Position numbers and translations under genes: made by a program. This document shows positions 14,344-38,816 of a stretch of DNA of 42,325 nt, piece by piece (the first letter of the stretch is position 1; each line of letters opens with the position of its first letter). Source of the stretch: an uncultured Eubacteriales bacterium (GTDB lineage: Bacteria; Bacillota; Clostridia; Oscillospirales; Oscillospiraceae); NCBI GenBank assembly GCA_905201305.1, contig CAJKNS010000001.1:1-42325 (forward strand), in the 5' to 3' direction. Below the pieces are notes generated by a model that had not been told where the DNA came from, did not search any database, and was given only the letters and a program-made list of their open reading frames with translations.

Positions 14344-15183
14344 TTAGGGCTTGTATTTCGATGCGTCGTATCCGTCGCATTCCACTACAATGTAAGAGTT
14401 CTCTTCCTTCCATGTTTCATAGGGCTCCGGAATTTTCGGCTCCGGATAGCTGGGTTCACAGGGCGAATTGGTGCCGGATTTCTGCACCAGCGTCTTTTGC
14501 CCCACATAGGCGATGGTAGGCATAGGCGGTCCGCCGGCAGGCTGGTCGGTCTTTCCGCCCTTGGGCGGCGGCGCCATCATCCCCATGCCCTGGTACTCCA
14601 AGCCGCACTCCATATGGTCCACCCGATGCCAGAGCTTCCACTGACCATCCTCCCGGATGAATTCGGCAGAATAGCGGGACAATCCCAAGGAGGTTTCCGG
14701 CTTTCCGGTTTCCTGATTCAGGTGGGACATATATGCATACGCCATCCATACGCCGCGCGCCGTCTGCCGGTCCTTTGCAATTTCCACATAGGGACTCAGC
14801 AGCATATTCATCACCTTATAGCCGGGACCATATTGCGAATCGAACTTCTCCCCATAAAACTTCTCTGCCACCGCTCTTCCCTGCGCCTTCATGGCAGAGG
14901 TCATGCCGGTGTAATAATTATATACGTTTTCCCGTCCGTAATAAGCCATGGAACCGTGGGCATAGACAATATCGTCCCGCTTGGACCAGTATTTCTCCAG
15001 CTCTTTCTCCTGGAGCTGCCCGTAATAGCCGAACACATGCTTGCCCATGGCGTTCATGATCTGGCGGTAGTCGTCTGCTGCCTCCGCCTGCTGCCGCAGC
15101 GCATTCAGCGCTGCGGATTCTGTTTTTACCGCTGCTTTGGCGGCTTCCAGCGCCGCAGTTACGCGAGACTGTGCATCCGTCAT
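14344..15183 (-). CDS. NTF2/SnoaL-like domain protein with N-terminal helical extension and Pro-rich C-terminal tail (A1)
   Basis: Core motifs are VEIAKDRQTARGVWMAY and FIREDGQWKLWHR, typical of a SnoaL-like cone fold. The tail is PPPKGGKTDQPAGGPPMP...KIPEPYETWKEENSY. The start ATG overlaps the A2 stop (ATGA at 15180-15183), with GGAAGGAGG upstream. The family call is by eye. Confidence 0.75.
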   Translation of the reverse strand: MTDAQSRVTAALEAAKAAVKTESAALNALRQQAEAADDYRQIMNAMGKHVFGYYGQLQEKELEKYWSKRDDIVYAHGSMAYYGRENVYNYYTGMTSAMKAQGRAVAEKFYGEKFDSQYGPGYKVMNMLLSPYVEIAKDRQTARGVWMAYAYMSHLNQETGKPETSLGLSRYSAEFIREDGQWKLWHRVDHMECGLEYQGMGMMAPPPKGGKTDQPAGGPPMPTIAYVGQKTLVQKSGTNSPCEPSYPEPKIPEPYETWKEENSYIVVECDGYDASKYKP

Positions 15184-15992
15184 ACGTCGTCGCCTCCTTC
15201 CGCATATCCGTCCTTGATGATTTGGATATAGGACTGTGCCGGATCCCAGGTGTCATAGGGCTGCGGGATTTTTGGCTCCCGATAGGTGCAGCTATAGGGC
15301 TTGTAGATCATATCTCCCATCTGGGCAATGGTCTTGACCCCTTCCTGAAACAGCGGCACGTTGTTCTCAAAGGGCAGCGTATCCAGCATATTGCAGGGCA
15401 GCATGGAATCCACATAATCTCTTCGGTGCCACATTTTCCAGGTTCCGTTTTCCAGATAGAATTCATCGCCATATTTGGCGAGTCCAAAGCTGGGGGACGC
15501 GCTGCCGTCGGAATCCATCTGGCTCATAAAGGTATGCGCCATCCAGATGCCCTGCGCCGTCTGTCCGTCGCCGGCAATTTCCACCACCGGAGAGCTGATG
15601 ACATTGTGCACCCGATAACCCGGTCCATCCGGCGGGTCCACCTGTAAGCCATAGTTCTTCAGCGCGTTGGCTCTTCCGTTGGCGCACATCTTTTTCGGCG
15701 TCTCAATGTAATACTGATAGGTGGATTCCCGCCCATAGAACGCTTCTCTGCCATGGGCATATACGATGTTGTCCACCGTCTGCGCCCAATACTGGTCCAG
15801 TTCGTCCTTGTGGAGATGCTGGTAGTAGCCCCAGTTGTGGCTTGCCTGGGCATTGACCCCCTGCCGGTAGGCGTCCGCCTGTGCCGCAGCCTTTTCGATT
15901 TCCGCAACCTCCTGGGCAAATCTCTCGTTGGCGGCTTCCAGCTTTTCTGCCTCTGCGGTCCATTCCCGCAGCTTTTCAAGCATATCGCTCAT
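15180..15992 (-). CDS. NTF2/SnoaL-like domain protein (A2), paralog of A1 and A3
   Basis: N-terminal Ala/Glu-rich helix (TAEAEKLEAANERFAQEVAEIEKAAAQADAYRQ). Core VEIAGDGQTAQGIWMAH and FYLENGTWKMWHRRDY. Tail KIPQPYDTWDPAQSY. ATGA overlap with the A3 stop at 15989-15992, with AGGAGGGG 8 nt upstream. Confidence 0.75.
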   Translation of the reverse strand: MSDMLEKLREWTAEAEKLEAANERFAQEVAEIEKAAAQADAYRQGVNAQASHNWGYYQHLHKDELDQYWAQTVDNIVYAHGREAFYGRESTYQYYIETPKKMCANGRANALKNYGLQVDPPDGPGYRVHNVISSPVVEIAGDGQTAQGIWMAHTFMSQMDSDGSASPSFGLAKYGDEFYLENGTWKMWHRRDYVDSMLPCNMLDTLPFENNVPLFQEGVKTIAQMGDMIYKPYSCTYREPKIPQPYDTWDPAQSYIQIIKDGYAEGGDDV

Positions 15993-16900
15993 TCAAACAT
16001 CCCCTCCTTCTGCACATTGGAGGTTTCATAGATCCAGGTGTCATAGGGCTCCGGCAGCTTTGGCGCTCCGATGGGCACCGCTGTGGGGGAATAGCTGCCG
16101 TTTGTCACCTTGATTTTTGTAATCGTCGTGGGTTTGGGGTTTTCCACCATGGGCTTGGGCGGCTTTCCGTCCTTGGTGGGCGGAGGTCCGATCATCGCCG
16201 CGGGGTTCTCCTCAAATACCACGTCTGCGTAATTCCGTCTGTGCCAGATTTTCCACTGACCGTCCTCCAGAATAAATTCTCCGGAATAGCGGGACAGTAC
16301 ACCCTGGGTTTTCAGATTGCCATCCTCACCAATGCAGCCCATAAACGAGTGTGCCATCCAGATGCCCTGGGCGGTCAGACCGTCCTCGGCAATCTCGATA
16401 TATGGCGTTCCAATGAGATTCATGTTTATGTAGCCGGGGGTTTTATCCCCCTCCGGCACCGGCTTTCCCATGGCGCTGAGCTGCTGCCTTGCCTGCTCGC
16501 TGCGCTTTTTTGCCGCTTCCACATAATATCGGCGGACTGCCCGCTGCCCCACATAGGCGAGATCGCCGTTGGCATAGACGATATCCTCCCGTTTCGACCA
16601 GTACTTCTCCAGTTCTTCTTCATAATCCTGGTTCAGGCAGCAATGGACATGTGCCGACATCAGATTCATAATTTCCCGGTAGGCTTCCGCTTTCATGATC
16701 CGTCGTTTTGCCTGCTCCAGCCGCGCTTCCAGCTCCGTGCGGTATTTTCTTGCCGTCTCCAGCCGGCTGACCAGTGCATCACAAGCCTGAGATACCTCCA
16801 CTTCCGGTACCACGTTGATCCCTTCTTTCTGATTGGATGTATCCAGTGTATCAAATTCACGCCTGCCGGAAAAGAAGAAAGCCCTTTGCATTCTTTTCAT
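15989..16900 (-). CDS. NTF2/SnoaL-like domain protein (A3), first gene of operon A
   Basis: The track ORF (15989-17377) is over-extended. ATG at 16900 (MKRMQRAFFFSG...) has GGAG 7 nt upstream. Core IEIAEDGLTAQGIWMAH and FILEDGQWKIWHRRNY. Tail GPPPTKDGKPPKPMVENPKP...KLPEPYDTWIYETS. Confidence 0.7.
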   Translation of the reverse strand: MKRMQRAFFFSGRREFDTLDTSNQKEGINVVPEVEVSQACDALVSRLETARKYRTELEARLEQAKRRIMKAEAYREIMNLMSAHVHCCLNQDYEEELEKYWSKREDIVYANGDLAYVGQRAVRRYYVEAAKKRSEQARQQLSAMGKPVPEGDKTPGYINMNLIGTPYIEIAEDGLTAQGIWMAHSFMGCIGEDGNLKTQGVLSRYSGEFILEDGQWKIWHRRNYADVVFEENPAAMIGPPPTKDGKPPKPMVENPKPTTITKIKVTNGSYSPTAVPIGAPKLPEPYDTWIYETSNVQKEGMFE

Positions 16901-16985
16901 TTTTTCGCTCCAGAGCAAAAAATAAAAAAACAAGCAAAAATCAAAACATTCCCATGGACCGCGGAGCACTTTGGGTCTTTTCTTC

Positions 16986-17015
16986 TTATCTGTGATTATG
17001 ATATAATGAAGATAA
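16986..17015. promoter_or_regulatory. nested palindrome overlapping an extended -10 promoter (TGaTATAAT, 16999-17007) in the divergent A3 / AraC intergenic region
   Basis: Sequence is TTATCT-gtg-ATTAT-gat-ATAAT-ga-AGATAA. The TGATATAAT element lies about 32 nt upstream of the AraC start. Confidence 0.5.
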
Positions 17016-17038
17016 TAGTTAGAAAGCGAGGCGTTTTC

Positions 17039-18232
17039 ATGGAGCAACCAAACATGTTCCCCGTTACAATCAATGAAGAGCTGTTCCGTATCCTGTTCCC
17101 CAGCGTAAAGGAAGCGGCAAACGCCTCTGACACCAACGCCATCATGGGGCTGCTCACAGATTCCTGCTATGCCCTGCTGCTCTATAAGCCGGTTCCCGGC
17201 AGCACTGCCGACCAAACCGCCCGTCAGGAGGACGCGTTCCGCGCCTTTCTTCAGGAGACACACCGGATCTGCTGCTTCCGTTTTCACGGACATAATATGG
17301 GACTGATCTCCTTTTCCACTTGGGATTGGGACAGGGTCCAGGCACAGACGGTTCAAATTGAGCGCTCCATCAGCCAATATCTACATACTGCGCTGGAGCA
17401 AACCGGCGTTGAGCTCAACATGTCCATCGGGCGTCCCTTTATGGGACTGTTAAACCTCCGCGAGGCATATTCCGAGCTCATCAACTCCACCATGACCTTT
17501 GCCCTGCGTCCGCAAAATCTTGTGGTGTCGGAGTATGACATCGTCAGCGATCCGGCGCTTATGGTGGACCCATATCCCCGCTCTGAAATTGAGCTTCAAT
17601 TGGCAGATGCAATCATTAAGCTGGAAATCGGGAAAGCGGAAAGCCTGATGGAGAACATCATTCAGCACGAAATGTCCACCCTGCACCTGAAGCTTTCGTT
17701 TCTTCCCCGCATGGCGATCCGGATTGAATGGATGCTGATTGTGCTGCATGTGCCGCGGAACTCCGGAGACGTCAGCAGCGCCGAAATCTACAGCTACCCC
17801 CAGCGCATCAAATATGCCGAAAGTCTCCAGGAGGGGATTGCGCTGATTCACGCCTGCTTTCAAAAGCTGGACGATTACTATAATGCCTTCCGCTTCAACG
17901 TTGGAAAAGACATCTCTCAAATCACGGATTATATTCATACCCAAGCCAGCAATCCCAATCTCAGCGCAACCATGATCTGTGACCGCTTCCGAATCAGCCC
18001 GTCCTACCTGTCCCATATGTTTAAGCGCCGCACGGGAATCAAGCTGGTTGATTATATCCACAAAGCACGTATCAGCCAGGCAAAGCAGCTGCTGGAAACT
18101 ACCACCGATACCATTGCGGAAATCAGCCGGCAGGTGGGCTATACCAGCAGCGCCAGCTTTTCCACCACCTTTAAGCGCTATGAAGCCATCACGCCAAGAG
18201 AATACCGGGATCGATTCCGGATGAATCATTGA
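17039..18232 (+). CDS. AraC family transcriptional regulator (about 290-aa N-terminal domain plus C-terminal double HTH)
   Basis: The track ORF 15881-18232 is over-extended across the antisense of the NTF2 genes. ATG at 17039 (MEQPNMFPVTINEE...) has GAGG 7 nt upstream. The C-terminus ICDRFRISPSYLSHMFKRRTGIKLVDYIHKARISQAKQLLETTTDTIAEISRQVGYTSSASFSTTFKRYEAITPREYR is canonical AraC HTH. Confidence 0.85.
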   Translation: MEQPNMFPVTINEELFRILFPSVKEAANASDTNAIMGLLTDSCYALLLYKPVPGSTADQTARQEDAFRAFLQETHRICCFRFHGHNMGLISFSTWDWDRVQAQTVQIERSISQYLHTALEQTGVELNMSIGRPFMGLLNLREAYSELINSTMTFALRPQNLVVSEYDIVSDPALMVDPYPRSEIELQLADAIIKLEIGKAESLMENIIQHEMSTLHLKLSFLPRMAIRIEWMLIVLHVPRNSGDVSSAEIYSYPQRIKYAESLQEGIALIHACFQKLDDYYNAFRFNVGKDISQITDYIHTQASNPNLSATMICDRFRISPSYLSHMFKRRTGIKLVDYIHKARISQAKQLLETTTDTIAEISRQVGYTSSASFSTTFKRYEAITPREYRDRFRMNH

Positions 18233-19314: not shown

Positions 19315-19321
19315 TTTTTTC

Positions 19322-21055
19322 ATGGAAAGAAGAACAAAGCTGTTTTCGCTTCTGCTGTGCCTTGCGCTGATTGCTGCAGTGTTCAGTGGCTGCGGTTCCC
19401 AAACAGCGGAAAGCACTGCCGCTGCGTCCAGCGCTCAGACGACAGAAGTAACGGCAAGTGCACCGGAACCGGCAGCGATGCCGGAGCCGGAGATTGCATC
19501 GGTATCCAGCGCCGAGGAAGCCACAATGGAGGAAGCCGAGCCCCCAGCCCCTGCCTATACCATTTCCTATCCGCTGGAGGGAGATGATCTGGAGCTGACT
19601 TATTGGATGCCCTTTAAATCTCCCCACGAATCCATCCAGACCTTTGACGAGTTCCCGGTGCTTGCAACCGCAGAGAAATTAACGGGTGTCAAGGTCAGCT
19701 TCACCTCCGAAAATATGATGACCGCCAGCGAGAAGTTCAACCTGATGGTTGCCTCCGGCGATTACTGCGACCTTCTGGGCGGCGCACTGAGCTATTACAC
19801 CGGCAACTATAACGAAGCCATTGCCGATGGCATTGCCATTGACCTCAGCGGCATGATTGAGGAATTTGCGCCGGACTATTACGCCATGCTGACCGCCGAT
19901 GAAAACAACTACAAGGCTGCCGTGGATGACGACGGCGTTATGATTGCGATTTATACCATTAAGGATCAGTATTTCCCGGTTATGGGCGGCACCGTCATTC
20001 GTCAGGACTGGATGGACGCCCTGGGCTACAAATCCATTGATTCCATTGACCAGATGGACGATTTCCTCCGGGACTGCAAGAGTACCTATGGTGCCGGTTA
20101 TCCCCTTATGCTCACCTATAGCAATTATGAAAACATCCTCAGCGCTGCATACGGCATTGGCGGCGGAGATTGCACCAACGGTCTTTATCAGGTGGACGGC
20201 GACGTTCGCTACACCTATGTACAGCCCGAGTATAAGGAGTATCTGAAGCTGGCAGCCGCATGGTATCAGGACGGCATCATCGGCTCCGACTTTATGAACG
20301 TCGGCACCACCGGTCTTCCCATGGAAACCTATACCTATGTATACAGCGGCGATACCGCAATCATCGGCGCAACCGCAGCCGAAATTGCATCCATCGAAGC
20401 CGAAACCGGAAACGGCTGCAAGCTGATTGGCTTCAACTATCCTGCCTCTGACGGCAGCGGCGTGACCCATTTTACCGATATGTCCATGATTAAGAGCAGC
20501 GAGCATGCCCTGATTACGGAGCAGTGCGCACATCCGGAAATTGCCCTGGAATGGCTAAACTACTGGTTCACCGAGTACGGCGCAATCGTTGCAAACTACG
20601 GCACCGAAGGGGAATCCTTCACATTTGACGAAAACGGCAATCCCCAGTGGACGGATTTGATTACGGCAAACGAATATGATCTGCCTGCAAACCGCGCCTC
20701 TGCAATTTACACGCTGTATGCGCATACAACGCCCATCCATACCATGGAGACTCGTCTGTCCTCCACCTTTACCCAGGAGCAGAAGGACGTTTACGATGTA
20801 TGGATGACCGGAATTGACGGCAACAATCTGCTGCCCGCGGTATCCCTGACCAAGGAAGAGTCCGAAACCGCACGCAGCCCGCTTGCTGATATCCAGACCT
20901 ATGTGGATGAGAATGTTGCAAAGTTCATCAACGGCACCAGAAGTTTGGACGAGTTTGACGACTTTGTTGCAGATATTGAAGGAATGGGGCTTGCAGACAT
21001 TATCGAGGTCTATCAGGCTGCATTGGAGCGCTATAACCAGCGCGCCGTTGGCTAA
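19322..21055 (+). CDS. extracellular solute-binding lipoprotein, large family-1 type: SBP-B
   Basis: SD TAAGGAGG. Lipobox MERRTKLFSLLLCLALIAAVFSGC plus an acidic linker. Paralog motifs ASGDYCDL, YQVDGDVRYTY and VYQAALERYNQR. Confidence 0.85.
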   Translation: MERRTKLFSLLLCLALIAAVFSGCGSQTAESTAAASSAQTTEVTASAPEPAAMPEPEIASVSSAEEATMEEAEPPAPAYTISYPLEGDDLELTYWMPFKSPHESIQTFDEFPVLATAEKLTGVKVSFTSENMMTASEKFNLMVASGDYCDLLGGALSYYTGNYNEAIADGIAIDLSGMIEEFAPDYYAMLTADENNYKAAVDDDGVMIAIYTIKDQYFPVMGGTVIRQDWMDALGYKSIDSIDQMDDFLRDCKSTYGAGYPLMLTYSNYENILSAAYGIGGGDCTNGLYQVDGDVRYTYVQPEYKEYLKLAAAWYQDGIIGSDFMNVGTTGLPMETYTYVYSGDTAIIGATAAEIASIEAETGNGCKLIGFNYPASDGSGVTHFTDMSMIKSSEHALITEQCAHPEIALEWLNYWFTEYGAIVANYGTEGESFTFDENGNPQWTDLITANEYDLPANRASAIYTLYAHTTPIHTMETRLSSTFTQEQKDVYDVWMTGIDGNNLLPAVSLTKEESETARSPLADIQTYVDENVAKFINGTRSLDEFDDFVADIEGMGLADIIEVYQAALERYNQRAVG

Positions 21056-21090: not shown

Positions 21091-21828
21091 ATGACACTGG
21101 AAGAACAGCTGAAAGAATTACGATTGGCGCAGGCGAGAACCCAGGCATATATTGACTGCTGCAATGTAATCGGAAAATATGTATGCTATCACGCTGCCGA
21201 CGAGCAGGAAAAGATCGCTTCCCTGTTTGCCACAAAGACCGAGGGCTGCCGCATTGAGATGATGTCCGGCGTGTTTGAGGGTGACGATGGCATTGAAGCA
21301 TTTTTCCACTCCCATCCCAACGCAGACGACGACGCCAACCGGAAGGGCTTCCTGCACATCCATATGCTCACCACCCCCATTGTGGAGGTTGCAGCCGACG
21401 GCGAGTCTGTCATGGGCTCCTGGTATTCCCCCGGCGTGGAGAGCAACACCTTTGGCGGAACCCTCAACGGCTTCTGGGCTTGGATGAAGTATGGCGCGAT
21501 TTTCAAGAAAGAGGACGGTCAGTGGAAAATCTGGCATCTGCATACCTACAGCATTTTCATGTGCCCCTATGACAAGTGCTGGACCGAGGTAGAGCCCTAT
21601 GGCCTTAAGAAGGAAATTCCGCCGGAGATGCTGGAAATGATGAAGAAGGAAATGGACGAAAAGGGAATGAAGGGTCCCGGAGGTCCCGGCGGCTTTGGCG
21701 GCGGTCCGATGTACACGCCTAAGCCTGCTACCACCTGGTGGGGCTTCTCCAAGGACTCCATGTACCCCGGCGACCAGCCCACACCTCCTACGCCCTACGA
21801 CACGCTGCCTGATACAGTAGAGATCTAA
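21091..21828 (+). CDS. NTF2/SnoaL-like domain protein (B1)
   Basis: AAGGAGG lies 8 nt upstream. Core VEVAADGESVMGSWYSP and IFKKEDGQWKIWHLHTY. Gly/Pro tail KGPGGPGGFGGGPMYTPKP...PTPPTPYDTLPDT. Confidence 0.7.
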   Translation: MTLEEQLKELRLAQARTQAYIDCCNVIGKYVCYHAADEQEKIASLFATKTEGCRIEMMSGVFEGDDGIEAFFHSHPNADDDANRKGFLHIHMLTTPIVEVAADGESVMGSWYSPGVESNTFGGTLNGFWAWMKYGAIFKKEDGQWKIWHLHTYSIFMCPYDKCWTEVEPYGLKKEIPPEMLEMMKKEMDEKGMKGPGGPGGFGGGPMYTPKPATTWWGFSKDSMYPGDQPTPPTPYDTLPDTVEI

Positions 21829-24650: not shown

Positions 24651-24726
24651 TGTTTTGACCTCAAATCATTGAATAACAGTTATAGTATACCACTACTTAT
24701 GTGTATTTTACAACAATTATTGCATG

Positions 24727-24735
24727 TGATAGAAT
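24727..24735 (+). promoter_or_regulatory. extended -10 element TGaTAGAAT upstream of the flavoprotein gene
   Basis: TG at 24727-24728 and TAGAAT at 24730-24735. This position argues against the track start at 24701. Confidence 0.4.
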
Positions 24736-24772
24736 AAAATCACGATCAATCAAGAAGCAATTTTCGGAAAGG

Positions 24773-26314
24773 ATGATTTTCGTGGCAAAGAAGGGTGGAA
24801 ATATCGTCATTATTGGCGGCGGCGCCAGCGGCATGACAGCGGCAATTCGCGCAAAGCAAAGAGGTGCAGAGCAGGTAATCCTGCTGGAAGCCAGTTCTGA
24901 ACTGGGCGGCAATGCGGTATACGCACCGGTACCGCTGCTGAAACCGGAGCAGCTCACCGAAGACGCAATTGAAAAAGAATATTTGGAAATGATGCAGTTC
25001 ACAGACTGGACCTCCGATCCCCGCATTGTAAGAACGCTGCTGGAGAATTCCGCAAGAATTCCTGCCTGGCTGGAGGAAAGCGGCGCTGATCTGAAAGAGG
25101 GAGAAAAGGACGGAAAGCTGGCAGCATTCTTGATCGCCAAGTGCTATGAGCTTGGCGTGGATGTCCGGCTGAACTGCTATGCAAAAAAGATATTGAAGGA
25201 CGCCAATGACTGGTGCAGCGGCGTCTGGGTGGAGCAGGACGGCAAGCATGAGGAAATTGAGGCAACCGTTGTGGTACTGGCAACCGGCGGTTTTCTGGGG
25301 GAAAATCGGCTCATGGAGCAGTTTTGCCCCTATTATGACGAGGTGTTTTTCGACGAGGTAGGTCATACCGGCAAGCTGTACAGCGGCAATGGTGTAGAAA
25401 TGGCGATCCGTGCCGGTGCCGGTGACGAGGGCATTAGTACCTTCGTATATACCGATGAAAAGCTGCCGTTCTACAAGGGCACGTTGACGCCCTGCCTCCA
25501 GACGGTCATTGACGATCCCTGCGCACTGGTCATCAACAATGTGGGCATCCGGTTTTCCAACGAAGCCCGCGCCACTTCCCCGGCAACCTATTATCATCAG
25601 CCCAATAAGGATATTTTCCGGGTTTATTCTCTGGACACCATCGAGACGCTGGCAGAAAAGTATCCCGGTGTTGTGACGGTGGAGAGCTTCCTGGAGGACA
25701 TCAAGCCGCTGATTGCAGCCGATCAGTGCCTGATTGCAGAGGACGAAAAGCCGATTGCCGCTTGGATTCGCGGAAAGTATCATATTCTGGGCACAGCCCT
25801 GGAGAAATACGCCCGCTACAGCCAGACCGGCCATGATGATGATTTCGGCAAGGATCCCAATACACTTCTGTCCTTTGGTCAGAAAAAGCCCTATTTTGTA
25901 TTCCGCAGCGGTCTTTCCCTTGGGTTTACCATGGGACCCATTAAGGTGAATCCCATGATGTCCTGTGTTACGAAGTTTGACGTTCCCACTGCGGCACTGT
26001 GCGCTTGCGGCTCTCTGATTGGCGACATTTTCACCACGCATTTTGTCTGCCTGGAGCGTTCCAGAGGGATTCGGTTCGCCATTGCATCCGGTCTTCTGGC
26101 GGGCGAGCATGCGGATATGTTCACCAGAGGCGGCGGTCCTGCCCCCAAATATACATGGCCCAGATTTACCGCAGAGCAGGTTATGGCTGGGGACTATTAC
26201 AATGTAGGTACGCCTGCGGGAGGAATCGGACCGGTTCAGCCCGGCGCGGAATTCGGCGCAACACCGAGAGAGCAAATGGAGCCGCCGAAGAACATGAGCC
26301 GTCTGGCGCACTAA
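24773..26314 (+). CDS. FAD-dependent oxidoreductase (fumarate reductase / 3-ketosteroid dehydrogenase-like flavoprotein family)
   Basis: Rossmann dinucleotide motif NIVIIGGGASGMTAAIRAKQRGAEQVILLEASSELGGNA near the N-terminus. VVLATGGF is typical of FAD_binding_2-type enzymes. The start is uncertain: ATG 24773, or GTG 24782 with better SD spacing. The track start 24701 is probably too early. Confidence 0.8.
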   Translation: MIFVAKKGGNIVIIGGGASGMTAAIRAKQRGAEQVILLEASSELGGNAVYAPVPLLKPEQLTEDAIEKEYLEMMQFTDWTSDPRIVRTLLENSARIPAWLEESGADLKEGEKDGKLAAFLIAKCYELGVDVRLNCYAKKILKDANDWCSGVWVEQDGKHEEIEATVVVLATGGFLGENRLMEQFCPYYDEVFFDEVGHTGKLYSGNGVEMAIRAGAGDEGISTFVYTDEKLPFYKGTLTPCLQTVIDDPCALVINNVGIRFSNEARATSPATYYHQPNKDIFRVYSLDTIETLAEKYPGVVTVESFLEDIKPLIAADQCLIAEDEKPIAAWIRGKYHILGTALEKYARYSQTGHDDDFGKDPNTLLSFGQKKPYFVFRSGLSLGFTMGPIKVNPMMSCVTKFDVPTAALCACGSLIGDIFTTHFVCLERSRGIRFAIASGLLAGEHADMFTRGGGPAPKYTWPRFTAEQVMAGDYYNVGTPAGGIGPVQPGAEFGATPREQMEPPKNMSRLAH

Positions 26315-26387: not shown

Positions 26388-26412
26388 GAAAAATAATTCA
26401 TGGAGGTACAAT

Positions 26413-27879
26413 ATGAAAAAGAAAATGTTATGTGCAATGCTAGCTGCCGCGTTCTTGCTCTCCATGTTTGCGGGCTGCAGCAGCAATTCCGAAAGCAGCG
26501 CTGCCCCGGCATCTGCTGAGCCCAGTGCTGCATCAGAGGAGACAGCTGCCGTATCTGCCCCTGAACCGACGGCTACCGCTGCCCCCCAAACCCAAGAATC
26601 CTCCACGCCGGAAGAGAGCACACTGGAGGAGCCGGCGCACACGATCTCCTATCCCCTGGGCCAGCAAGGTGAGACAATTACCTTCTGGACGACCATCCCC
26701 GGCAACCAAACCGATATTTTTCCCAACGGCTATAACGACCATTTTCTGATTAACGACGTGGAAGAAGCCCTTGGCGTTGACCTGGACATTATTTCGGTTC
26801 CTCAGATTGCCATGGGCGATACAACGGACTTTGATTTGATGATTGCATCCGGTGACTGGCCGGATCTACTGAATGTAACCGGCTATAAGGGCGGCCTGAC
26901 GCAGGCATATTCCGATGAAATCATTCTGGAGCTGACCGACGAAATGCTCAGCGAGTATGCTCCCGCTTACTATAGCCTGCTGATGGCACAGACGCCGGAG
27001 AACATCCGTGCGACCCAAACGGAAGGCGCGTACTATGCGATGTATGGTATCACCAAGGGTGCGGGAGCCAACGCAAGCCGCGGAATGGTCATTCGGACGG
27101 ACTGGCTCAGCGAGCTGAACATGGATATCCCCTCCACGGTGGAAGAGCTGACCGAGATTCTCAAAGCCTTCAAACGTACCTATAACCCCCAATACCCCTA
27201 CTTTATTGAGGCGGACGCGGATCTTGTCTATATGTGTGCCGCATTTAACACGGATACCGTCGGCTACTACAATGACGGTGCGCTTCCTGTTTACCGCGAC
27301 GGCGATGAGGTAAAGGTTGCGTGGGCAACCAACGAACACCGGAAGTTCCTGGAATGGTTCAACGAATGCTATCAGGAAGGAATCTTTGAACCGTCCTTCT
27401 ACTCCACCGCTTCCGACCAGGCGGGTGATCGGTACTCCAACCTGATTAACGGTCAGATTGGCGTTTATGAGGATTCCCCCACCTCAATCGCCGACTGGAA
27501 GCAGTATGCCCTAAACGGTGAAACCGTGGAGGTTTCCTTCTTCCCCAACCTGGTGGACGAGAACGGAAATAACACCTGGGGCGAGGAGCAGCAGGTGATT
27601 GATTCCCGGTCTGCAATGTCCATCACAACCACCTGCCAGAATCCTGAACTGGCATTGGAGGTTCTGAACTACTTCTTCACGGAAGATGGCGCAATTATGG
27701 CGAACTATGGCATTGAGGGCTATAGCTTCAACTATGGGAAAAACGGCGAGGTAGAATATACGGAGCTGCTGAAGAACAGCGAGTATCAGCTGAGTATGCG
27801 CGCACTGCACGGTCTGTACTCCTGGAATCTGTTCCCCTACGATGATTCAACGGAGATGCACCAGCATACGCTTTATTGA
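26413..27879 (+). CDS. extracellular solute-binding lipoprotein SBP-C, apparently 3'-truncated (lacks about 90 C-terminal residues present in paralogs)
   Basis: The track ORF 25999-27879 is over-extended. ATG at 26413 has GGAGG 6 nt upstream and gives the lipoprotein signal MKKKMLCAMLAAAFLLSMFAGC. It aligns to paralogs up to ..NSEYQLSMRALHGLYSWNLFPYDDSTEM, then stops. The ...YQxAxDRY C-terminal segment is missing. Confidence 0.75.
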   Translation: MKKKMLCAMLAAAFLLSMFAGCSSNSESSAAPASAEPSAASEETAAVSAPEPTATAAPQTQESSTPEESTLEEPAHTISYPLGQQGETITFWTTIPGNQTDIFPNGYNDHFLINDVEEALGVDLDIISVPQIAMGDTTDFDLMIASGDWPDLLNVTGYKGGLTQAYSDEIILELTDEMLSEYAPAYYSLLMAQTPENIRATQTEGAYYAMYGITKGAGANASRGMVIRTDWLSELNMDIPSTVEELTEILKAFKRTYNPQYPYFIEADADLVYMCAAFNTDTVGYYNDGALPVYRDGDEVKVAWATNEHRKFLEWFNECYQEGIFEPSFYSTASDQAGDRYSNLINGQIGVYEDSPTSIADWKQYALNGETVEVSFFPNLVDENGNNTWGEEQQVIDSRSAMSITTTCQNPELALEVLNYFFTEDGAIMANYGIEGYSFNYGKNGEVEYTELLKNSEYQLSMRALHGLYSWNLFPYDDSTEMHQHTLY

Positions 27880-31433: not shown

Positions 31434-31664
31434 ATGAAAATCAGAGACAGCATCCAATCCTATCTCGCGCTATTTCTCTTTGGCAATCTTGCGGGAATCA
31501 TTTGCAGACTGTCGGATTTCTTTCCATATGAAAGTCTGTGGAGCTTGCCGTCCATTGCCACCTTATTCGGCTTTTGGATTGCCAGCGTAGGAATCATCAC
31601 CTATTGCAGCGCATCCAACCGTGGGGCTTTTCTTCATACATTCGGCGCAGAAGCAGAGGAGTAA
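31434..31664 (+). CDS. hypothetical membrane protein, possibly a truncated remnant
   Basis: ATG 31434 (MKIRDSIQSYLALFLFGNLAGIICRL...). It has two or three hydrophobic segments, then ends abruptly in a decayed region. Confidence 0.3.
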   Translation: MKIRDSIQSYLALFLFGNLAGIICRLSDFFPYESLWSLPSIATLFGFWIASVGIITYCSASNRGAFLHTFGAEAEE

Positions 31665-31744
31665 GAGAATTACAAGAATTACGCAGAAAAATGAGACGAA
31701 TTCACAGTTTTCATGCAACTGGAGTTGGAAAGGACACCGTCACC

Positions 31745-32780
31745 ATGCAGAAACCACTTTACAAGCAGCTGTACGCGCAGTTTTACCGTGGGAACATCCC
31801 CATATTTGCCCTTGCAATCTTTGCGGCACTGGCAAGCGGAAGCCTGAACCTGATTCTCTCATGGATCATCGGACAGCTCATTGACGCGGCATCCGGTGCC
31901 GTAGGCGCAATGCCGCTGACGGTTCTGATAAGAATCACAGGCGGCTTTGTACTGCTGTGCGCGGTGCTGTTTTTGCTGAAATTCGCGTCAGAGCCGCGGT
32001 TCATTGCCCGTGCTATGGAGCAGTATAAGGACTTTGCATTTCAAAAGCTCACGGAAAAGAGCATCGCGTCCTTCCGGGATGAGAGCACAGCGGCATATCT
32101 TTCCGCGCTGACCAACGATGCTGCCAGCGTGGAGGCAGATTACCTCTCCCAGCAGCTTTTCCTGATTACGAAGTCGGTAACATTTCTCGGCGCACTTTGC
32201 ATGATGCTCTGGTATTCGCCGCTGCTGACTGCCGTGGCGGTGGGCGTGACGCTTCCTCCACTGTGTGCATCTCTGCTGACAGGCAGCCGATTGCAGGCGG
32301 CGGAACAGCGGGTCTCCCAGTGCAATCGGGATTTTACCGCTGCACTGTCCGACTGTCTCAGCGGATTTACCGTGGTCAAAACCTTCAAGGCGGAACGGGA
32401 AATCCTTCGCCTTTTTGCAAAAACCAATCGCGCATTGGAACAGGAGAAGTTCAGCCGACGGAGATTAGATGAATTTCATGATCGAGCCGGTGGCAGAGCT
32501 TCCCGCGCTGCTGGCAGGCCGAAAAGCGGCGCTGGGGCTTGTGGACCGGCTGGAAAAGGCGCTGGACGCAGAAACTGCCCATCAGGTTTCCAGCGACATT
32601 CTGGACCTCGGCGGTATTACCCGAATTGTTGTAACCCACACTTTGGAGGAAGCGCTGCTGCGCCGCTATGACGGAATTCTTGTGCTGAAAAACGGCGAAA
32701 TTGCCGAATTTGGGCGCTTTGATGCACTGATGGAGAAGAAGGGCTATTTCTACGCGCTGTTTACGGTAGCGCAGCAGTGA
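31745..32780 (+). pseudogene. remnant of a fused TMD-NBD ABC exporter (MsbA-like type) with a frameshift and internal deletions
   Basis: Frame 2 from ATG 31745 encodes an exporter TMD (MQKPLYKQLYAQF...ILRLFAKTNRALEQEKFSRRR), then degenerates. Frame 0 (32469-32780) continues with the TMD end (IEPVAELPALLAGRKAALGLVDRLEKAL). That segment is joined directly to the extreme C-terminus of an NBD (DAETAHQV..ITRIVVTHTLEEALLRRYDGILVLKNGEIAEFG). Walker A, signature and Walker B are absent. Confidence 0.7.
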
Positions 32781-33962: not shown

Positions 33963-34034
33963 AAAAAGAGTTGTTTTTCGATGAAGTGCGGATTCGATAT
34001 AATGGATTTATTCAAACAGAAAGAAGGTAATGTT

Positions 34035-34688
34035 ATGGCAAAGCGACTGTATTTTAGCGATCTTGCCCGTGAGCTTGGAATTGCCGGCAGAGAAATGCCG
34101 CCCATGGGTGGTCCACCTCCGGCGCCTGCTTTGGGAAATCATCCCATGACCCATCCCAATGTATGGCGAAAGGAAGGCGGTGAAAAGCTGCTTTCTTATC
34201 TCAAGGCACATTATCACGCCGGAGATGAGCTGGAATATGACGGTCATGCGGACTGCTGGCTGATGCTTGCAATGATGGACCAGATGCGGGACTGCAAGCT
34301 CTCCACTTACATTGGCGCAGGCTTTGACCGCAGCTTACCCATTGAGGCATACCGGCTGGGTCCCGAACCGGCGCCCAATCAGCCCTGTACCTTCACGGTG
34401 GTGGAGCAGGGGGAGAATATCCAGCTTACCGTGCACCTCACCCCCGACGGCACCCCATTCGATCTGCCCTTCCGGGAGATTGTTGCGCCCCAGCTGCCAA
34501 CAGGGAAAAACATTTTTGTCCGGCTGGAGGGACGGCATTTGCTGTTTACGTTCCCGATTTCCCTGACCTACGGAACAACCTGCCGGAGTATTGTGATGGA
34601 TTATGACCAGGAGTGCTTTGTCTCCGTTTCCAATGCTCCGGAGCTTCAGGTGGGAGACTGCATTCCAAATCCCTTTGCGACCGCTTAA
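34035..34688 (+). CDS. hypothetical protein (217 aa), first gene of operon D
   Basis: GAAGG lies 7 nt upstream of ATG 34035 (MAKRLYFSDLARELGIAGREMPPMGGPPPAPALGNHPMTHP...). The track start 33981 lies upstream of the candidate -10. There is no signal peptide, no TM segment and no recognisable family. Confidence 0.6.
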   Translation: MAKRLYFSDLARELGIAGREMPPMGGPPPAPALGNHPMTHPNVWRKEGGEKLLSYLKAHYHAGDELEYDGHADCWLMLAMMDQMRDCKLSTYIGAGFDRSLPIEAYRLGPEPAPNQPCTFTVVEQGENIQLTVHLTPDGTPFDLPFREIVAPQLPTGKNIFVRLEGRHLLFTFPISLTYGTTCRSIVMDYDQECFVSVSNAPELQVGDCIPNPFATA

Positions 34689-34700: not shown

Positions 34701-36446
34701 ATGAAAATGAAAAAGATTGGAAGCCTTCTGCTTGCCGCAGCCATGCTGCTGGGCATGTTATCCGCCTGCGGTCAGGAATCAGAAGTCTCTGCTCCGGCTG
34801 CCGCTGCAAGCCATCAGGAGGAATCGGCAGCTCCCACAGCATCCGCTGCACCGGCTCCTGACGCTGCGGATTCGCAGCAGGACATTGCTTCTGCTCCGGA
34901 GGAGAGCGTTCAGGAAACCATCGACTATGTTTCCCCCTTCCCGCTGAGTGAGCCTGCGACTCTGACTGCATGGGCAATGTGGATTCCCGGCATTGAGCAG
35001 TATGTTTCCTCACCCATGGAGACTGCCGTATTTCGGGAGATGAAACAGCGCACCAACGTTACCCTGGAAATGTCGCTGGCGTCCAGCCCGGAAACCGCCA
35101 TGACCGAGATCAACCTGATTATTGCCTCCGGCGACTATCCCGACCTCATTAACAACCTTCAGGGCTACTATTCTTCCGGTCTGGACTCCGCCATTGAGCA
35201 GGAGGTCATTGTGGACATTCTGGACTATGAGGATATCATGCCCAACTACTTTGCGAAGCTCCGGGAGCGGGATGCTATGGAGGATGCCACCACGGAAGAC
35301 GGTCACATCGGCGTGGTCTACCAGGTGAGCAAGGGCTCCGACACCATTCAGAGCGGTCTGACCCTTCGGAAGGACTGGATGGAGGAGCTGGGCGCAGACG
35401 CTCCTACCACCTATGATGAGCTGCATGATCTGCTGATGCAGTTTAAAAGCAAATATGACGTTTCCCAGCCCCTGTATGTGCCCAAGAGCGGTGCACCGGA
35501 TACCATGTTTGATGGCTTCGGCACGGAGCTGGACTACGTGATGAACAACGAGATGGGCTCTGCGCCCTGGAACTATGTGGACAATGGCAGCGGTCTGGAC
35601 GTGGTTTTCGGCTTTATGGACGACAGCTACTATGACATTCTGGAGCTGATGCACAGCTGGTACAGCGATGGTCTGTTCTCTGCGGACTATCTTAACAACA
35701 ACTATAATGTAGACGCCGACAACCTGACCTCCGGCGATTTTGCCTGCCTGTTTGCAACAGAGCAGTCCCTGAATGCCGGCAACACCTTTGTACCCCACAT
35801 GTGGGATGCGTACCCCAACGTTTCTCTGAACGGCGAAAAGATCCGTGCTTCCAGCGAAACCACCTCTGCCATTGCAGCGCAGGGCTACTCCATCACCACC
35901 ACCTGCGAAGACAAAGAGCTGGCAGCCCAGTGGCTGGACTATCAGTACACTGATGAATCCTATCTGCTGAATAACTACGGTCTGGAGGGTCAGGGCTTTG
36001 AATACGACGACAAGGGCGAGCCTGCACTGACGGATCTCATTATGAACAATCCCGACGGCATTCCTCAGGCTTACACCCAGTTTATCTATCTGAGCGTCAC
36101 CGGCTCCTTCTATCTGGACAACGACCGCTTTAAGAGCAACTACTGCGAGGAAGCAAAAGCCTGCAACGACGTGTGGAGAAGCGCCTATGACTATTATGAC
36201 ACCCCCTATAACACCCGCGCCATTGCTCTGACCACCGAGGAAACCGAGCGCTATGCCCAGGTCTTCTCCGACATCTCCACCTACTGCAACCAGGCGATTG
36301 CCGAATTCATCACCGGTCAGAATGCCCTGACCCAGGAGAGCTTTGACGCCTTCCGTGAGAATCTTACCACCATGGGCATTGACGAGTGCCGGAGCATTTG
36401 GCAGGATGCCGCAAACCGCTATGTGGCTTCTCTGAACGCCGCCTGA
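34701..36446 (+). CDS. extracellular solute-binding lipoprotein, large family-1 type: SBP-D
   Basis: Lipoprotein signal M(KM)KKIGSLLLAAAMLLGMLSAC. ATG 34707 has better SD spacing than 34701. Acidic linker follows. Paralog motifs ASGDYPDL and C-terminal IWQDAANRY. Confidence 0.85.
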   Translation: MKMKKIGSLLLAAAMLLGMLSACGQESEVSAPAAAASHQEESAAPTASAAPAPDAADSQQDIASAPEESVQETIDYVSPFPLSEPATLTAWAMWIPGIEQYVSSPMETAVFREMKQRTNVTLEMSLASSPETAMTEINLIIASGDYPDLINNLQGYYSSGLDSAIEQEVIVDILDYEDIMPNYFAKLRERDAMEDATTEDGHIGVVYQVSKGSDTIQSGLTLRKDWMEELGADAPTTYDELHDLLMQFKSKYDVSQPLYVPKSGAPDTMFDGFGTELDYVMNNEMGSAPWNYVDNGSGLDVVFGFMDDSYYDILELMHSWYSDGLFSADYLNNNYNVDADNLTSGDFACLFATEQSLNAGNTFVPHMWDAYPNVSLNGEKIRASSETTSAIAAQGYSITTTCEDKELAAQWLDYQYTDESYLLNNYGLEGQGFEYDDKGEPALTDLIMNNPDGIPQAYTQFIYLSVTGSFYLDNDRFKSNYCEEAKACNDVWRSAYDYYDTPYNTRAIALTTEETERYAQVFSDISTYCNQAIAEFITGQNALTQESFDAFRENLTTMGIDECRSIWQDAANRYVASLNAA

Positions 36447-36457
36447 TTTAGACCATG

Positions 36458-36485
36458 GGAGCGGATGATTGAAGCCATCCGCTCC
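36458..36485 (+). other. intercistronic stem-loop directly upstream of the D1 ribosome-binding site
   Basis: GGAGCGGATG (36458-36467) pairs with CATCCGCTCC (36476-36485). AGGAGG follows at about 36488. Confidence 0.5.
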
Positions 36486-36499
36486 TCAGGAGGAATTTT

Positions 36500-37246
36500 A
36501 TGCTGACAAAAAACACCCTTACCCCGGAATTGCAGATTGAGCGCTGGGAGGACCGAAGGGATATCAAGAACCTGATGGGTCGCTATGCCTATGATCTGCT
36601 CATTAAAAACGAAAAGAACATCTATGCTGCCCATTGGTCCACCAGACCGGACGTCTGCCTGATGTACCCTTGGGGCACCTATCGCGGCGCAGCGGCAGTC
36701 CGGGATTTCTATGCCGCGCTGGACCGTTATAATGCCGAGCGCGCCCGCTGGTATCAGGAGATGATGCCGGAAAAGACCAAGGGACTCTCTCAGGAGGAGC
36801 TTTACGGCATCGGCTCCTACCATGGTATGCACCTGACGACCCCCTGTATCATCGTTGCCGACGACGGAGAAACTGCCCAGGCAATTTACTGGTGTCACGA
36901 TGTCTATGACGTGATGTGCGAGGCGGGGAACACCGGAAAGTGGGATATCGGGCTGCTGTTTTTAGACCTTGTCTATGAGGACGGCAGTTGGAAGCTCTGG
37001 CATATGCGCTGCGCCTTTGAGGTCAGCGGTCCCCACGGTCAGCCCTTTGGCACGGAATTTACCCTGCCCGGTGAGCCCATTTCCTATCTGGTGGAGGAGC
37101 TGAACAAGGCAAAGGAATGGTTCCCCCAGCCCAATGATCCCACCCCCTCTCACATCATGTATCAAAAGGGGAGAACCGCGCCCCAGTATCCCCCCTGCCC
37201 GAAGCCCTATGCCACCTGGCAGGACAGCCAAAGCTATGGCGTATAA
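36500..37246 (+). CDS. NTF2/SnoaL-like domain protein (D1)
   Basis: N-terminal helix WEDRRDIKNLMGRYAYDLL. Core IIVADDGETAQAIYWCH and LVYEDGSWKLWHMRCAF. Tail ..YPPCPKPYATWQDSQSYGV. Confidence 0.75.
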   Translation: MLTKNTLTPELQIERWEDRRDIKNLMGRYAYDLLIKNEKNIYAAHWSTRPDVCLMYPWGTYRGAAAVRDFYAALDRYNAERARWYQEMMPEKTKGLSQEELYGIGSYHGMHLTTPCIIVADDGETAQAIYWCHDVYDVMCEAGNTGKWDIGLLFLDLVYEDGSWKLWHMRCAFEVSGPHGQPFGTEFTLPGEPISYLVEELNKAKEWFPQPNDPTPSHIMYQKGRTAPQYPPCPKPYATWQDSQSYGV

Positions 37247-37258
37247 GGAGGCAGTATC

Positions 37259-37996
37259 ATGAACGCAAAATATCCATTCCCCGCTTATATCGAATGCTGC
37301 CCCTATGAGCCGCTGCTGCCGGACTATACTCCGGAGGAGCAGCTGGATGCCGTGCTGGCGAAGGACGAGGTTATGAACCTCATGGGACTGCGAAACTATT
37401 ATTATCTTGCAAATGATCTGCCCGGTCTGCTGGAGCAGCTTTGGGTGCAGGAACCGGAGAACAGAAAGACAGCCTCCCTGGGCTCCAACTTTGGCTTTTA
37501 CATTGGCTGGGAGGAAATCCAGCGGTATGTCCGGGAGCGTTCCCAGCGCATTTTGGTGGGCAGTCAGTGCCAGTCGGTAAATACCCCCATGATTCACGTG
37601 GCATTTGACCGAAAAACCGCCCGTGGGCTTTGGTATTCCGACGGCTATATCACCGATCTTCAGGGCAATACCGATGTGATCGCCCAGAAGGTAGCGGTGG
37701 ACTTCATTCGAGAAGGCGACCAGTGGAAGATCTGGCACCTCACCTATGGTGCAGACCTGGTGGATGCACTCCATAGCGATCCCATAGAAGGCGACTATGG
37801 CATGCTGGGGCAGCTGAAAACGTGGTTTGGAACCCCCACCGTTGCCTGCATCACCCATGATCCCAAGTACAACTGGAACGACAATTATCCGGCGGAGCCC
37901 GAGCCCTATGAGAGCTTCCGTTCCACCGAGAGCTATGGTCCCGAGGGATGCCCCCGGTACCGGCAGCACATGCGGGAGGTGAAGCACCATGCGTAA
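37259..37996 (+). CDS. NTF2/SnoaL-like domain protein (D2)
   Basis: AAGGAGG lies 7 nt upstream. Core IHVAFDRKTARGLWYSD and DFIREGDQWKIWHLTYG. Tail YPAEPEPYESFRSTESYGPEG. Confidence 0.7.
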   Translation: MNAKYPFPAYIECCPYEPLLPDYTPEEQLDAVLAKDEVMNLMGLRNYYYLANDLPGLLEQLWVQEPENRKTASLGSNFGFYIGWEEIQRYVRERSQRILVGSQCQSVNTPMIHVAFDRKTARGLWYSDGYITDLQGNTDVIAQKVAVDFIREGDQWKIWHLTYGADLVDALHSDPIEGDYGMLGQLKTWFGTPTVACITHDPKYNWNDNYPAEPEPYESFRSTESYGPEGCPRYRQHMREVKHHA

Positions 37997-38816
37997 ATCC
38001 CATCTGAGCTTTGAACAGCGGGTTCACAATGCCTATGGCAGCCAGGAGGTGGAGAACGTCCGGGCAAGCCATGCCTTTGGTCATGCCCGCAACCTTTCCA
38101 CCCGGGAATGGGGCAATATCTGGGCAACCTGCCCGGATACCGCCTGGGCGCACAGCTTTGGGCGAAATCGGGGCTTTGAGGCAATTTGGCGCATCTGCGT
38201 AGCCAACTATGACGTCAAGGGCTGCATCAACTATCTAAAGCTCTTCGATGATAACTCCGATGCGCTGGGCTTTGATATGCGTTCGATGATGATGGTAGCC
38301 ATGCATTGCCTGTCCACCGAATGCGTAGAAATGGCGGACGATGGAAAAACCGCCCGTGCCTGGCATCTGACCCCCGGCGGCTGCTTCAACCACATGGGAC
38401 CGAAAATGCCCGGACCTCAGGGGGATCAGCCCCGTCCGGAGCGAATTTCCGGCGGCTATGAGCGCTATGGCTCCGACTATGTGTTTGAGGACGGGCGCTG
38501 GAAGCTGCTGCATGAGCACATATCCCCGGATCTCCACGGCACGTTCTGGCATGGCGATTTCTTCTATCAGGGCTTCCATGATGCCGTCACCGGAAAGGAG
38601 CGCGGACCCATGATGCCGCCTCCCGGGAACAGCAAATACGATGCCATTGTGCCGGATGTCTTCCCGGATATGCAGGAGCTCAAGGACAACCACTATGACT
38701 ACAGTGCCCTTCAGCCGGTGCAGCCATCCTGCCGTCCGCCGGAGCCTTACGAAACCTTCGATGAAAACAATACCTATGCGCCGATCATTGATCCGGAGTA
38801 TTTCCGGAGCCTGTAA
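37989..38816 (+). CDS. NTF2/SnoaL-like domain protein (D3), most divergent copy
   Basis: 8-nt overlap with D2, with GGGAGGTG upstream. Core VEMADDGKTARAWHLTP and YVFEDGRWKLLHEHISP. Tail CRPPEPYETFDENNTYAPI. Confidence 0.65.
   Translation: MRKSHLSFEQRVHNAYGSQEVENVRASHAFGHARNLSTREWGNIWATCPDTAWAHSFGRNRGFEAIWRICVANYDVKGCINYLKLFDDNSDALGFDMRSMMMVAMHCLSTECVEMADDGKTARAWHLTPGGCFNHMGPKMPGPQGDQPRPERISGGYERYGSDYVFEDGRWKLLHEHISPDLHGTFWHGDFFYQGFHDAVTGKERGPMMPPPGNSKYDAIVPDVFPDMQELKDNHYDYSALQPVQPSCRPPEPYETFDENNTYAPIIDPEYFRSL

Follow-up and report, generated by a model that had tools for sequence, protein, structure and literature searches.

A conserved C-terminal PxPY arm and a fixed-order three-gene module in NTF2-like proteins of an uncultured Oscillospiraceae bacterium: a probable latch between subunits

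NTF2-like enzymes perform cofactor-free dehydrations, deformylations, and dehalogenations, e.g., bile-acid 7-dehydroxylation and lignin-dimer cleavage. The question raised by the locus described herein is why seven strongly divergent NTF2-like proteins end in the same short peptide. These proteins, named A1–A3, B1, and D1–D3, are encoded on a stretch of 42,325 nucleotides (nt) of contig CAJKNS010000001.1 from an uncultured Eubacteriales bacterium of the family Oscillospiraceae; this whole stretch is referred to as the window. A first-pass annotation of the letters alone had noted the peptide, P-x-P-Y (PxPY) followed by a few further residues, and proposed that it docks on a common partner or a neighboring subunit. 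In the present study, we consider it probable that the PxPY arm latches subunits together in NTF2-like enzymes that are homo- or heterotrimers. The three-subunit module that suggests heterotrimers lies beyond the original observation and is, in our opinion, its most interesting extension.

A shared tail motif in seven divergent paralogs

The regular expression P.PY[EDA][TS][WFL] was applied to the six-frame translation of all 42,325 bases. It returned exactly seven matches, each in the tail of one paralog. The genes and the motifs located in this manner are listed below with their lengths in amino acids (aa), their scores against the Pfam model SnoaL_4 (PF13577; gathering score, 24 bits), and, for A1 and B1, the predicted local distance difference test (pLDDT) values of AlphaFold2 (AF2) models.

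14344-15183, minus strand: A1, third gene of the A3-A2-A1 triplet; 279 aa; SnoaL_4, 35.3 bits
14410-14430, minus strand: motif of A1, PEPYETW, residues 252-258; AF2 pLDDT 96-98 for the 250-270 blocks
15180-15992, minus strand: A2, second gene of the A triplet; 270 aa; SnoaL_4, 30.9 bits
15246-15266, minus strand: motif of A2, PQPYDTW
15989-16900, minus strand: A3, first gene of the A triplet; SnoaL_4, 38.0 bits
16034-16054, minus strand: motif of A3, PEPYDTW
21091-21828, plus strand: B1, singleton; 245 aa; SnoaL_4, 48.1 bits
21787-21807, plus strand: motif of B1, PTPYDTL, preceded by a Gly-rich linker; AF2 pLDDT 95 for block 231-240
36500-37246, plus strand: D1, first gene (alpha type) of the D1-D2-D3 triplet; 248 aa; SnoaL_4, 28.3 bits
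37199-37219, plus strand: motif of D1, PKPYATW
37259-37996, plus strand: D2, second gene (beta type); 245 aa; SnoaL_4, 26.5 bits
37898-37918, plus strand: motif of D2, PEPYESF
37989-38816, plus strand: D3, third gene (gamma type); 275 aa; SnoaL_4, 15.3 bits
38739-38759, plus strand: motif of D3, PEPYETF

The start of A3 is uncertain: the ATG at 16900 gives 303 aa, and orthologs suggest a start approximately 30 codons further in. Six of the seven open reading frames (ORFs) passed the SnoaL_4 threshold; D3 fell below it, yet was recovered by the family profile and by its fold. None of the seven proteins matched an NCBIfam model, and hmmsearch with the family profile found no eighth copy in the window.

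Identity to A1 was 22-41%, yet P252, P254, and Y255 (A1 numbering) were invariant in a MAFFT alignment of the seven window proteins. The shared tail motif of these NTF2-like proteins is real and far beyond chance, as the first-pass annotation had claimed, and its coordinates in A1 were as given there. Two details required revision. The motif had been placed 10-25 residues from the C terminus, and the actual distance from its end was 6-25 residues (B1, 6; D1, 8; D2, 25). A Pro/Gly-rich linker had been assigned to every copy. This held for A1, A3, B1, D1, and D3, in which the Pro plus Gly fraction of the linker was 0.21-0.31 versus 0.09-0.14 in their cores, but not for A2 (0.13) or D2 (0.17), the linkers of which were not enriched. 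The conserved element also extends past the motif as originally described, with a Pro three residues before it and a second S/T-Y five or six residues after the W/F.

Several other readings of the motif were considered. Recent gene conversion was ruled out because pairwise identity among the paralogs is only 20-43%. A C-terminal sorting signal was ruled out as well, since the window proteins lack both a hydrophobic segment and a signal peptide. Eukaryotic PPxY (PY) ligands of WW domains have a superficially similar Pro/Tyr motif after a disordered linker. However, their spacing is P-P-x-Y, the present hosts are bacterial, no WW-domain partner is evident, and the peptide is predicted here to be part of a conserved segment of approximately 30 residues that folds onto the NTF2 body. 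We rejected a ligand of this type (wrong spacing, P-x-P-Y, and wrong kingdom) on general knowledge only.

The motif marks a wider family. A profile search of 5.8 billion proteins returned 230 matches at E <1e-5, and nearly all of the full-length ones had PxPY near the C terminus; carriers were found in Bacillota, Brenneria, Comamonas, Acinetobacter baylyi, and Steroidobacteraceae. When 1.84 billion cluster representatives were searched exhaustively with HMMER, 2,351 members were found at E ≤1e-3 and 587 at ≤1e-30, the approximately 2,350 family representatives being counted at 50% identity. In a 79-sequence alignment with a mean identity of approximately 25%, the only invariant columns were D138, E178, P252, and Y255. 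Conservation was then expressed over 392 non-redundant relatives, filtered at 80% identity and ranging from Bacillota to Pseudomonadota: P252 (99%), Y255 (96%), T/S257 (89%), P254 (88%), P249 (83%), F/W258 (77%), Y264 (75%), and S263 (67%). P252 and Y255 ranked 7th and 8th in information among 255 columns, level with the best positions of the core. The fuller consensus reads P-x-[LIP]-P-E-P-Y-x-[TS]-[FW]-x-[ED]-x-x-S-Y.

The first-pass annotation had also suspected that the tail is absent from canonical SnoaL and BaiE proteins and that it defines a distinct subfamily. Both suspicions were borne out: the SnoaL_4 match ends near residue 190, BaiE chains have 185-188 residues, and the motif is 96-99% conserved at P252 and Y255 among the relatives described above. 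Since the SnoaL_4 match stops at this point, no curated Pfam or NCBIfam model covers the arm. The motif is a family signature and not lineage-specific drift: it is not part of a known annotated domain, and database homologs carry it.

All seven proteins combine the SnoaL_4 core with an arm of 42 residues or more and with P-x-P-Y-x-[TS]-[FWL] approximately 5-30 residues from the C terminus, the features by which we propose to define a PxPY-arm clade. Judged from their sequences, they are members of a large uncharacterized SnoaL_4/NTF2-like clade that is sister to the LdpA/PcfL lyases. This clade has no characterized member. In uncultured Oscillospiraceae of the gut and rumen, it ranks with the most expanded paralog families, and the arm provides a simple searchable signature for it.

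Arm anatomy and the docking of its terminal peptide

A1 is composed of a long N-terminal helix, the SnoaL_4 NTF2-like core, a linker, and the C-terminal arm. In the family, PxPY lies at least 42 residues past the last core strand (W-K-I-W-H), with a median spacing of 61 residues and an interquartile range of 57-68; a median of 15 residues follow the motif. Among 20 A1 orthologs, conservation was 52% in the linker (196-228), 80% in the tail (229-248), 89% in the motif, and 82% in the core.

AF2 monomer models of A1 and B1, which are 24% identical, were made with the family alignment. The A1 model had a mean pLDDT of 89.6 and a predicted template modeling score (pTM) of 0.85, with residues 201-206 below 50 and the blocks in 250-270 at 96-98. 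The corresponding values for B1 were 86.1 and 0.86, with the Gly-rich residues 195-204 below 50 and block 231-240 at 95. Both models adopt the cone-shaped alpha+beta barrel fold of NTF2 (pTM 0.85-0.86), and their top Foldseek matches were LdpA, BaiE, LinA, and scytalone dehydratase. A linker with pLDDT below 50 and a motif at 95-98 indicate that the arm, as modeled, is a flexible tether ending in a peptide packed tightly on an NTF2 body. The earlier proposal of a flexible linker with a conserved docking peptide is supported by these predictions for two paralogs. A direct search of the PDB with a 40-aa tail query found no match at E up to 10.

The closest PDB match by sequence and fold was to the diarylpropane lyases NaLdpA and SpLdpA (8ABT, 8ABU, 8ABV, and 8ABW), with a profile E of 2e-19, an hhalign probability of 98.7%, a Foldseek E of 4e-12, and a template modeling (TM) score of approximately 0.6 over approximately 180-190 columns. 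LdpA and PcfL, its sole other characterized homolog, are gamma-formaldehyde lyases of sphingomonads. LdpA cleaves lignin dimers, tyrosines form its oxyanion hole, and its homotrimer is stabilized through an extended C-terminal arm, which holds on to the neighboring monomer (PMC9942872, PMC11323797).

LdpA resembles the window proteins in its length of approximately 240-280 aa, its N-terminally extended first helix, and its SnoaL_4 core. It also has a Pro-rich C-terminal arm with its own invariant prolines and aromatics approximately 50-60 residues past the last core strand. The window proteins have an arm of comparable length, which is confidently docked in the monomer models and is not alignable in sequence to that of LdpA. 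B1, D3, and the majority of singletons and third-position proteins retain the residues of the His93 and Tyr143 columns of LdpA. The His-Asp dyad (SpLdpA His93/Asp36) was not found: at the Asp36 column, the seven proteins and the clade as a whole have Ala, Leu, or Tyr, while among the seven the His93 column is His only in B1 and D3, Asn in A1-A3, Met in D1, and Gln in D2. The columns of the Glu139-Tyr161-Gln166 triad (Motif II) are variable, and the triad is present in 0/7 window proteins. Since neither Asp36 nor the Glu-Tyr-Gln triad is conserved, the window proteins resemble LdpA in architecture but lack its catalytic dyad and triad. A further difference is that LdpA is a homotrimer made from one gene, whereas most of the PxPY clade is encoded in three-gene modules.

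BaiE, LinA, and scytalone dehydratase were the next matches. The bile-acid 7-alpha-dehydratase BaiE (4L8O, 4L8P, 4LEH, and 4N3V), also a gut Bacillota enzyme, shares the SnoaL_4 family and fold. However, its chains have neither a long arm nor PxPY. The window proteins (245-303 aa) are not of its compact type (approximately 170-190 aa), and the profile match to BaiE (E of 6e-5 to 4e-3) covered their N-terminal half. LinA and scytalone dehydratase (3A76, 3S5C, and 4STD) are trimeric NTF2-like dehydratases/dehydrochlorinases in which C-terminal residues contribute to the neighboring or own active site. Their Foldseek TM scores normalized to the target were 0.67-0.82; however, they have approximately 150-170 aa, no flexible linker, and no PxPY, and were not detectable by profile searches.

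In this clade, each polypeptide combines a cone-shaped core, a variable and often Pro/Gly-rich tether, and the conserved peptide, which is predicted to pack on an NTF2 body; we propose that the functional unit may be a trimer, as in LdpA. Each arm would reach over and latch onto the adjacent subunit, in trans rather than in cis, with the invariant Pro-x-Pro-Tyr as its anchor. B1-type singletons would form homotrimers. An element reaching a neighboring subunit was among the original suggestions, and it fits, by analogy, the LdpA arm that contacts the adjacent monomer of the trimer. The stabilization of an NTF2-like trimer by a C-terminal arm is already known from LdpA. Neither the PxPY arm nor the triplet organization given below is covered by a Pfam or NCBIfam model, and literature searches on heterotrimeric NTF2/SnoaL enzymes and on this clade turned up no paper on either.

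Alternatively, the arm may wrap its own barrel as a lid, and PxPY may shape or close its own pocket as a substrate gate with no role in assembly. The monomer models dock the motif on the same chain (pLDDT 95-98), the C-terminal region of scytalone dehydratase covers the active site, and weak covariation was noted between tail residues 256-264 and core residues 137-143 and 185 of the same protein. However, AF2 monomer runs cannot show docking in trans, which is how the arm docks in LdpA, the closest relative with a solved structure. The covariation was obtained in a second run of direct coupling analysis (DCA; pairs 258-141, 258-185, 256-137, and 262/264-143), which did not recover known beta-ladder contacts of the core; therefore, these pairs are a hint only. 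We regard a lid in cis as unlikely, and further points that bear on it are given with the pocket residues and fusions.

It appears very improbable that the peptide is a linear motif recognized by an external partner common to these proteins, e.g., the neighboring solute-binding protein (SBP) lipoprotein, a chaperone, a membrane protein, or a secretion factor. A disordered linker followed by a short conserved peptide does resemble a linear motif, and a large SBP lipoprotein gene lies near 28 of the 66 runs of at least three family genes. However, exported proteobacterial members encoded next to a porin keep the motif, as do cytoplasmic Bacillota members whose neighbors differ and include SBP lipoproteins, and the persistence of the motif across compartments and neighbors disfavors an external partner. 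Furthermore, the SBP is an extracellular lipoprotein, whereas signal peptides are absent from the window proteins; the AF2 models place the peptide on the NTF2 body itself at very high confidence; and no partner gene is common to all loci. The membrane component or chaperone envisaged by the first-pass annotation is not supported by these comparisons.

The A subunits also carry an N-terminal extension of approximately 35 residues in each of A1-A3 (14344-16900, minus strand). For A1, a single unbroken helix of 53 residues (2-54, pLDDT 93-97) is predicted at the N terminus, which also has weak coiled-coil-type Pfam matches. In a trimer, the helices of A1-A3 could form a three-helix bundle on its axis.

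Triplet modules, pocket residues, and gene fusions

A scan of 185,579 species genomes identified 503 relatives, and gene order was counted in the best 80 loci and the window. These 80 loci were mostly from uncultured gut and rumen Oscillospiraceae; the other hosts were Lachnospiraceae, Desulfobacterales, Steroidobacteraceae, Novosphingobium, Acidobacteriota, and Anaerolineae. The 111 tandem runs included 62 exact triplets (52 away from contig ends), 29 singletons, and 14 pairs. Some single genomes contributed several loci, and single loci contained up to three triplets. The closest relative in another locus was at the same triplet position in 142 of 146 comparisons. Therefore, the positions, designated alpha, beta, and gamma, are ancient orthologous subfamilies in a fixed order.

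Both triplets of the window follow this order, each gene being orthologous to the same position elsewhere. D1-D2-D3, a typical triplet, matched the triplet of locus L041 position by position at 77-88% identity. A3-A2-A1 matched the triplets of L001 and L002 at 72-77%, with the closest relative of A2 again being a second-position gene; the A members are 36-43% identical to one another and represent a second triplet lineage. The A3/A2 and A2/A1 junctions are ATGA overlaps and the D2/D3 junction is an 8-nt overlap, while D1 and D2 are separated by a 12-nt gap containing AGGAGG.

The residues at three pocket columns of LdpA in the 62 triplets are as follows.

LdpA His93 column: position 1, Lys/Arg in 44/62 and His in 5/62; position 2, His in 36/62; position 3, His in 54/62
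LdpA Tyr31 column: position 1, variable (Tyr in 34/62); position 2, variable (Arg in 31/62); position 3, His in 60/62
LdpA Tyr143 column: position 1, variable (Phe in 21/62); position 2, variable (Val in 22/62); position 3, Tyr in 57/62

Thus, a conserved His/His/Tyr pocket was found mainly in the third subunit. At the Tyr31/His93/Tyr143 columns, D3 has H/H/Y, D1 has Y/M/L, D2 has R/Q/V, and B1 has Y/H/Y. The motif Tyr was present in 62/62, 56/62, and 53/62 proteins at positions 1, 2, and 3, respectively (the third set also had six gaps and three Phe). Since the Tyr is kept at all positions and the pocket columns mainly at the third, its role appears to be structural rather than catalytic. The equal conservation of the motif in first- and second-position subunits, despite their degenerate pocket residues, also argues against a lid in cis.

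We considered whether the arm Tyr is inserted into its own or a neighboring active site as a catalytic or oxyanion-hole residue. It is 96% conserved, the oxyanion hole of LdpA is made of tyrosines, and D138 and E178, the other invariant residues, could be its partners. However, a catalytic Tyr would not be expected at all three triplet positions when the pocket is conserved only in the third, and the conservation of D138/E178 extends to LdpA, which lacks PxPY. Moreover, this Tyr is lost in most of the first-second fusions described below, which are presumably still functional. We consider a catalytic role to be highly unlikely.

Two-domain fusions of first and second subunits in gene order were found among the representatives searched (P0121, P0122, P0123, P0125, P0127, and P0037), and at least three of the surveyed loci contain two-domain fusion ORFs, e.g., L037:7977-9551. 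The motif Tyr of the first domain was lost in four of the six distinct fusions: P0121 has PEPV, P0123 has IPDAW, and P0127 and P0037 have no recognizable motif. In P0125, the Tyr remains within an altered PEDY, and the whole motif is found only in P0122. The unfused position-1 proteins all carry the motif Tyr (62/62). Therefore, the constraint on the first arm relaxes once the subunits are covalently joined. This decay is predicted by a latch between separate polypeptides and not by a lid in cis or a catalytic Tyr. The fusions are also Rosetta-stone hints, at the level of sequence, of a physical association. Three-domain LdpA-like fusions (P0215 and P0224) have an arm of their own on each domain. 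A lipoprotein-type signal peptide and the arm motif PP[YF]HY.HPV were noted in the three-domain fusions.

The overlapping genes, the fusions in gene order, and the degenerate pockets in two of three subunits indirectly suggest assembly into heterotrimers. We propose that the fixed-order triplets (A3-A2-A1 and D1-D2-D3) would yield heterotrimers of three ancient subunit types, in which the conserved pocket is kept mainly by the third subunit. A wider proposal, which we put forward tentatively and with some doubt, is that an obligate heterotrimeric NTF2-like enzyme class exists, with three ancient fixed-order paralogs, one conserved third-subunit pocket, and reciprocal PxPY-anchored arms. In uncultured Oscillospiraceae of the gut and rumen, this class may have expanded massively into substrate-specific modules for the dehydration or lyase cleavage of plant- or host-derived compounds, each including its own SBP, a regulator, and often an ene-reductase. 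If the heterotrimer is true, a symmetric NTF2 trimer would, unusually, have become asymmetric with a single active subunit, and the three genes would need to be co-expressed for an active enzyme. The arm and the triplet layout together provide a concrete, testable model of assembly.

Several observations weigh against a latch and heterotrimers. AF2 monomer models necessarily place the arm in cis. Mean-field DCA on approximately 340-500 family sequences gave no validated contacts, and its first run was dominated by gap artifacts. The arm motif of LdpA differs (...R.TWPHR.EV.MSFAHPV), PxPY occurs in 0/120 LdpA orthologs, and the hhalign profile-profile alignment does not extend beyond the core. 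Since the arms are not alignable and share no PxPY, the analogy with LdpA rests on anatomy and not on motif homology. In the window, A1, A2, and A3 all have H/N/Y, with Asn at the His column in every A subunit. The argument from fusions rests on six sequences, which possibly derive from one fusion event. Furthermore, tandem triplets could encode three separate homo-oligomeric enzymes of one pathway.

Genomic context and neighboring genes

Regulator genes also accompany the runs of at least three family genes, LysR at 17 runs and AraC at 14. A flavoprotein of approximately 670 aa with the domains Oxidored_FMN and Pyr_redox_2 adjoins triplets in 14 loci (e.g., L022:12135-14159 and L016:11884-14085). 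It has the architecture of enoate/2,4-dienoyl-CoA reductases and a Cys cluster, CxxCxxC. This domain pair is presumably also that of BaiCD/BaiH, and the combination of the flavoprotein with an NTF2-like enzyme resembles, by analogy, the dehydratase/ene-reductase pairing of bile-acid 7-dehydroxylation.

B1 is followed by two short-chain dehydrogenases/reductases, and a LysR gene, an FAD_binding_2 flavoprotein, and an SBP lie approximately 2-6 kb downstream. The B1 ortholog of Brenneria (P0080; 40% identical, arm included) sits in a cluster of LysR, FAD_binding_2, OprB porin, and NTF2 genes. The FAD_binding_2 flavoprotein of the window (24701-26314, plus strand) lies under a divergent LysR gene and has a 24%-identical homolog (E 1e-21) in the Brenneria cluster (L085:3882-5507). 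These sequence matches hint that the pairing of a flavoprotein with an NTF2-like protein is conserved across phyla. We tentatively view the loci as substrate-inducible catabolic modules, in which an NTF2 dehydration or lyase step stands beside redox steps dependent on flavin or nicotinamide adenine dinucleotide.

N-terminal signal peptides were noted on the proteobacterial PxPY members P0080, P0093, P0095, and P0109 (Brenneria, Comamonas, A. baylyi, and one other) and on none of the window proteins. Because of these signal peptides, the proteobacterial members are probably periplasmic.

The window contains four large SBP lipoprotein genes. Their products have 560-580 aa and a signal peptide followed by a lipobox, and every gene neighbors an NTF2 gene, an NTF2 triplet, or the gene of the FAD protein:

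12637-14325, minus strand: large SBP lipoprotein
19322-21055, plus strand: large SBP lipoprotein; no Pfam match at 1e-3
approximately 26400-27879, plus strand: large SBP lipoprotein
34701-36446, plus strand: large SBP lipoprotein

No ATP-binding cassette (ABC) permease genes adjoin these four genes. Two consecutive ORFs in different frames (39735-40788, plus strand) both resemble parts of the same large SBP family and appear to be one frameshifted or broken SBP gene. Directly upstream of the SBP/D1-D2-D3 unit, a 235-aa protein (33981-34688, plus strand) without a Pfam match has a Pro/Gly-rich N-terminal stretch, MPPMGGPPPAPALG. It is conserved at this place in the metagenome contigs L081-L084, and its relatives were found near runs of at least three family genes in three cases.

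Two further loci of the window were noted. A 1,973-aa secreted repeat protein (6557-12478, plus strand), which has no bearing on the PxPY arm, has N-terminal leucine-rich-repeat-like units followed by C-terminal Cys-rich repeats and SLH-like segments. An ABC exporter with membrane and ATPase domains (31538-32780, plus strand) appears to be split into two overlapping ORFs in different frames, which could reflect a frameshift or a pseudogene; related contigs have it annotated as two genes of 276 and 262 aa.

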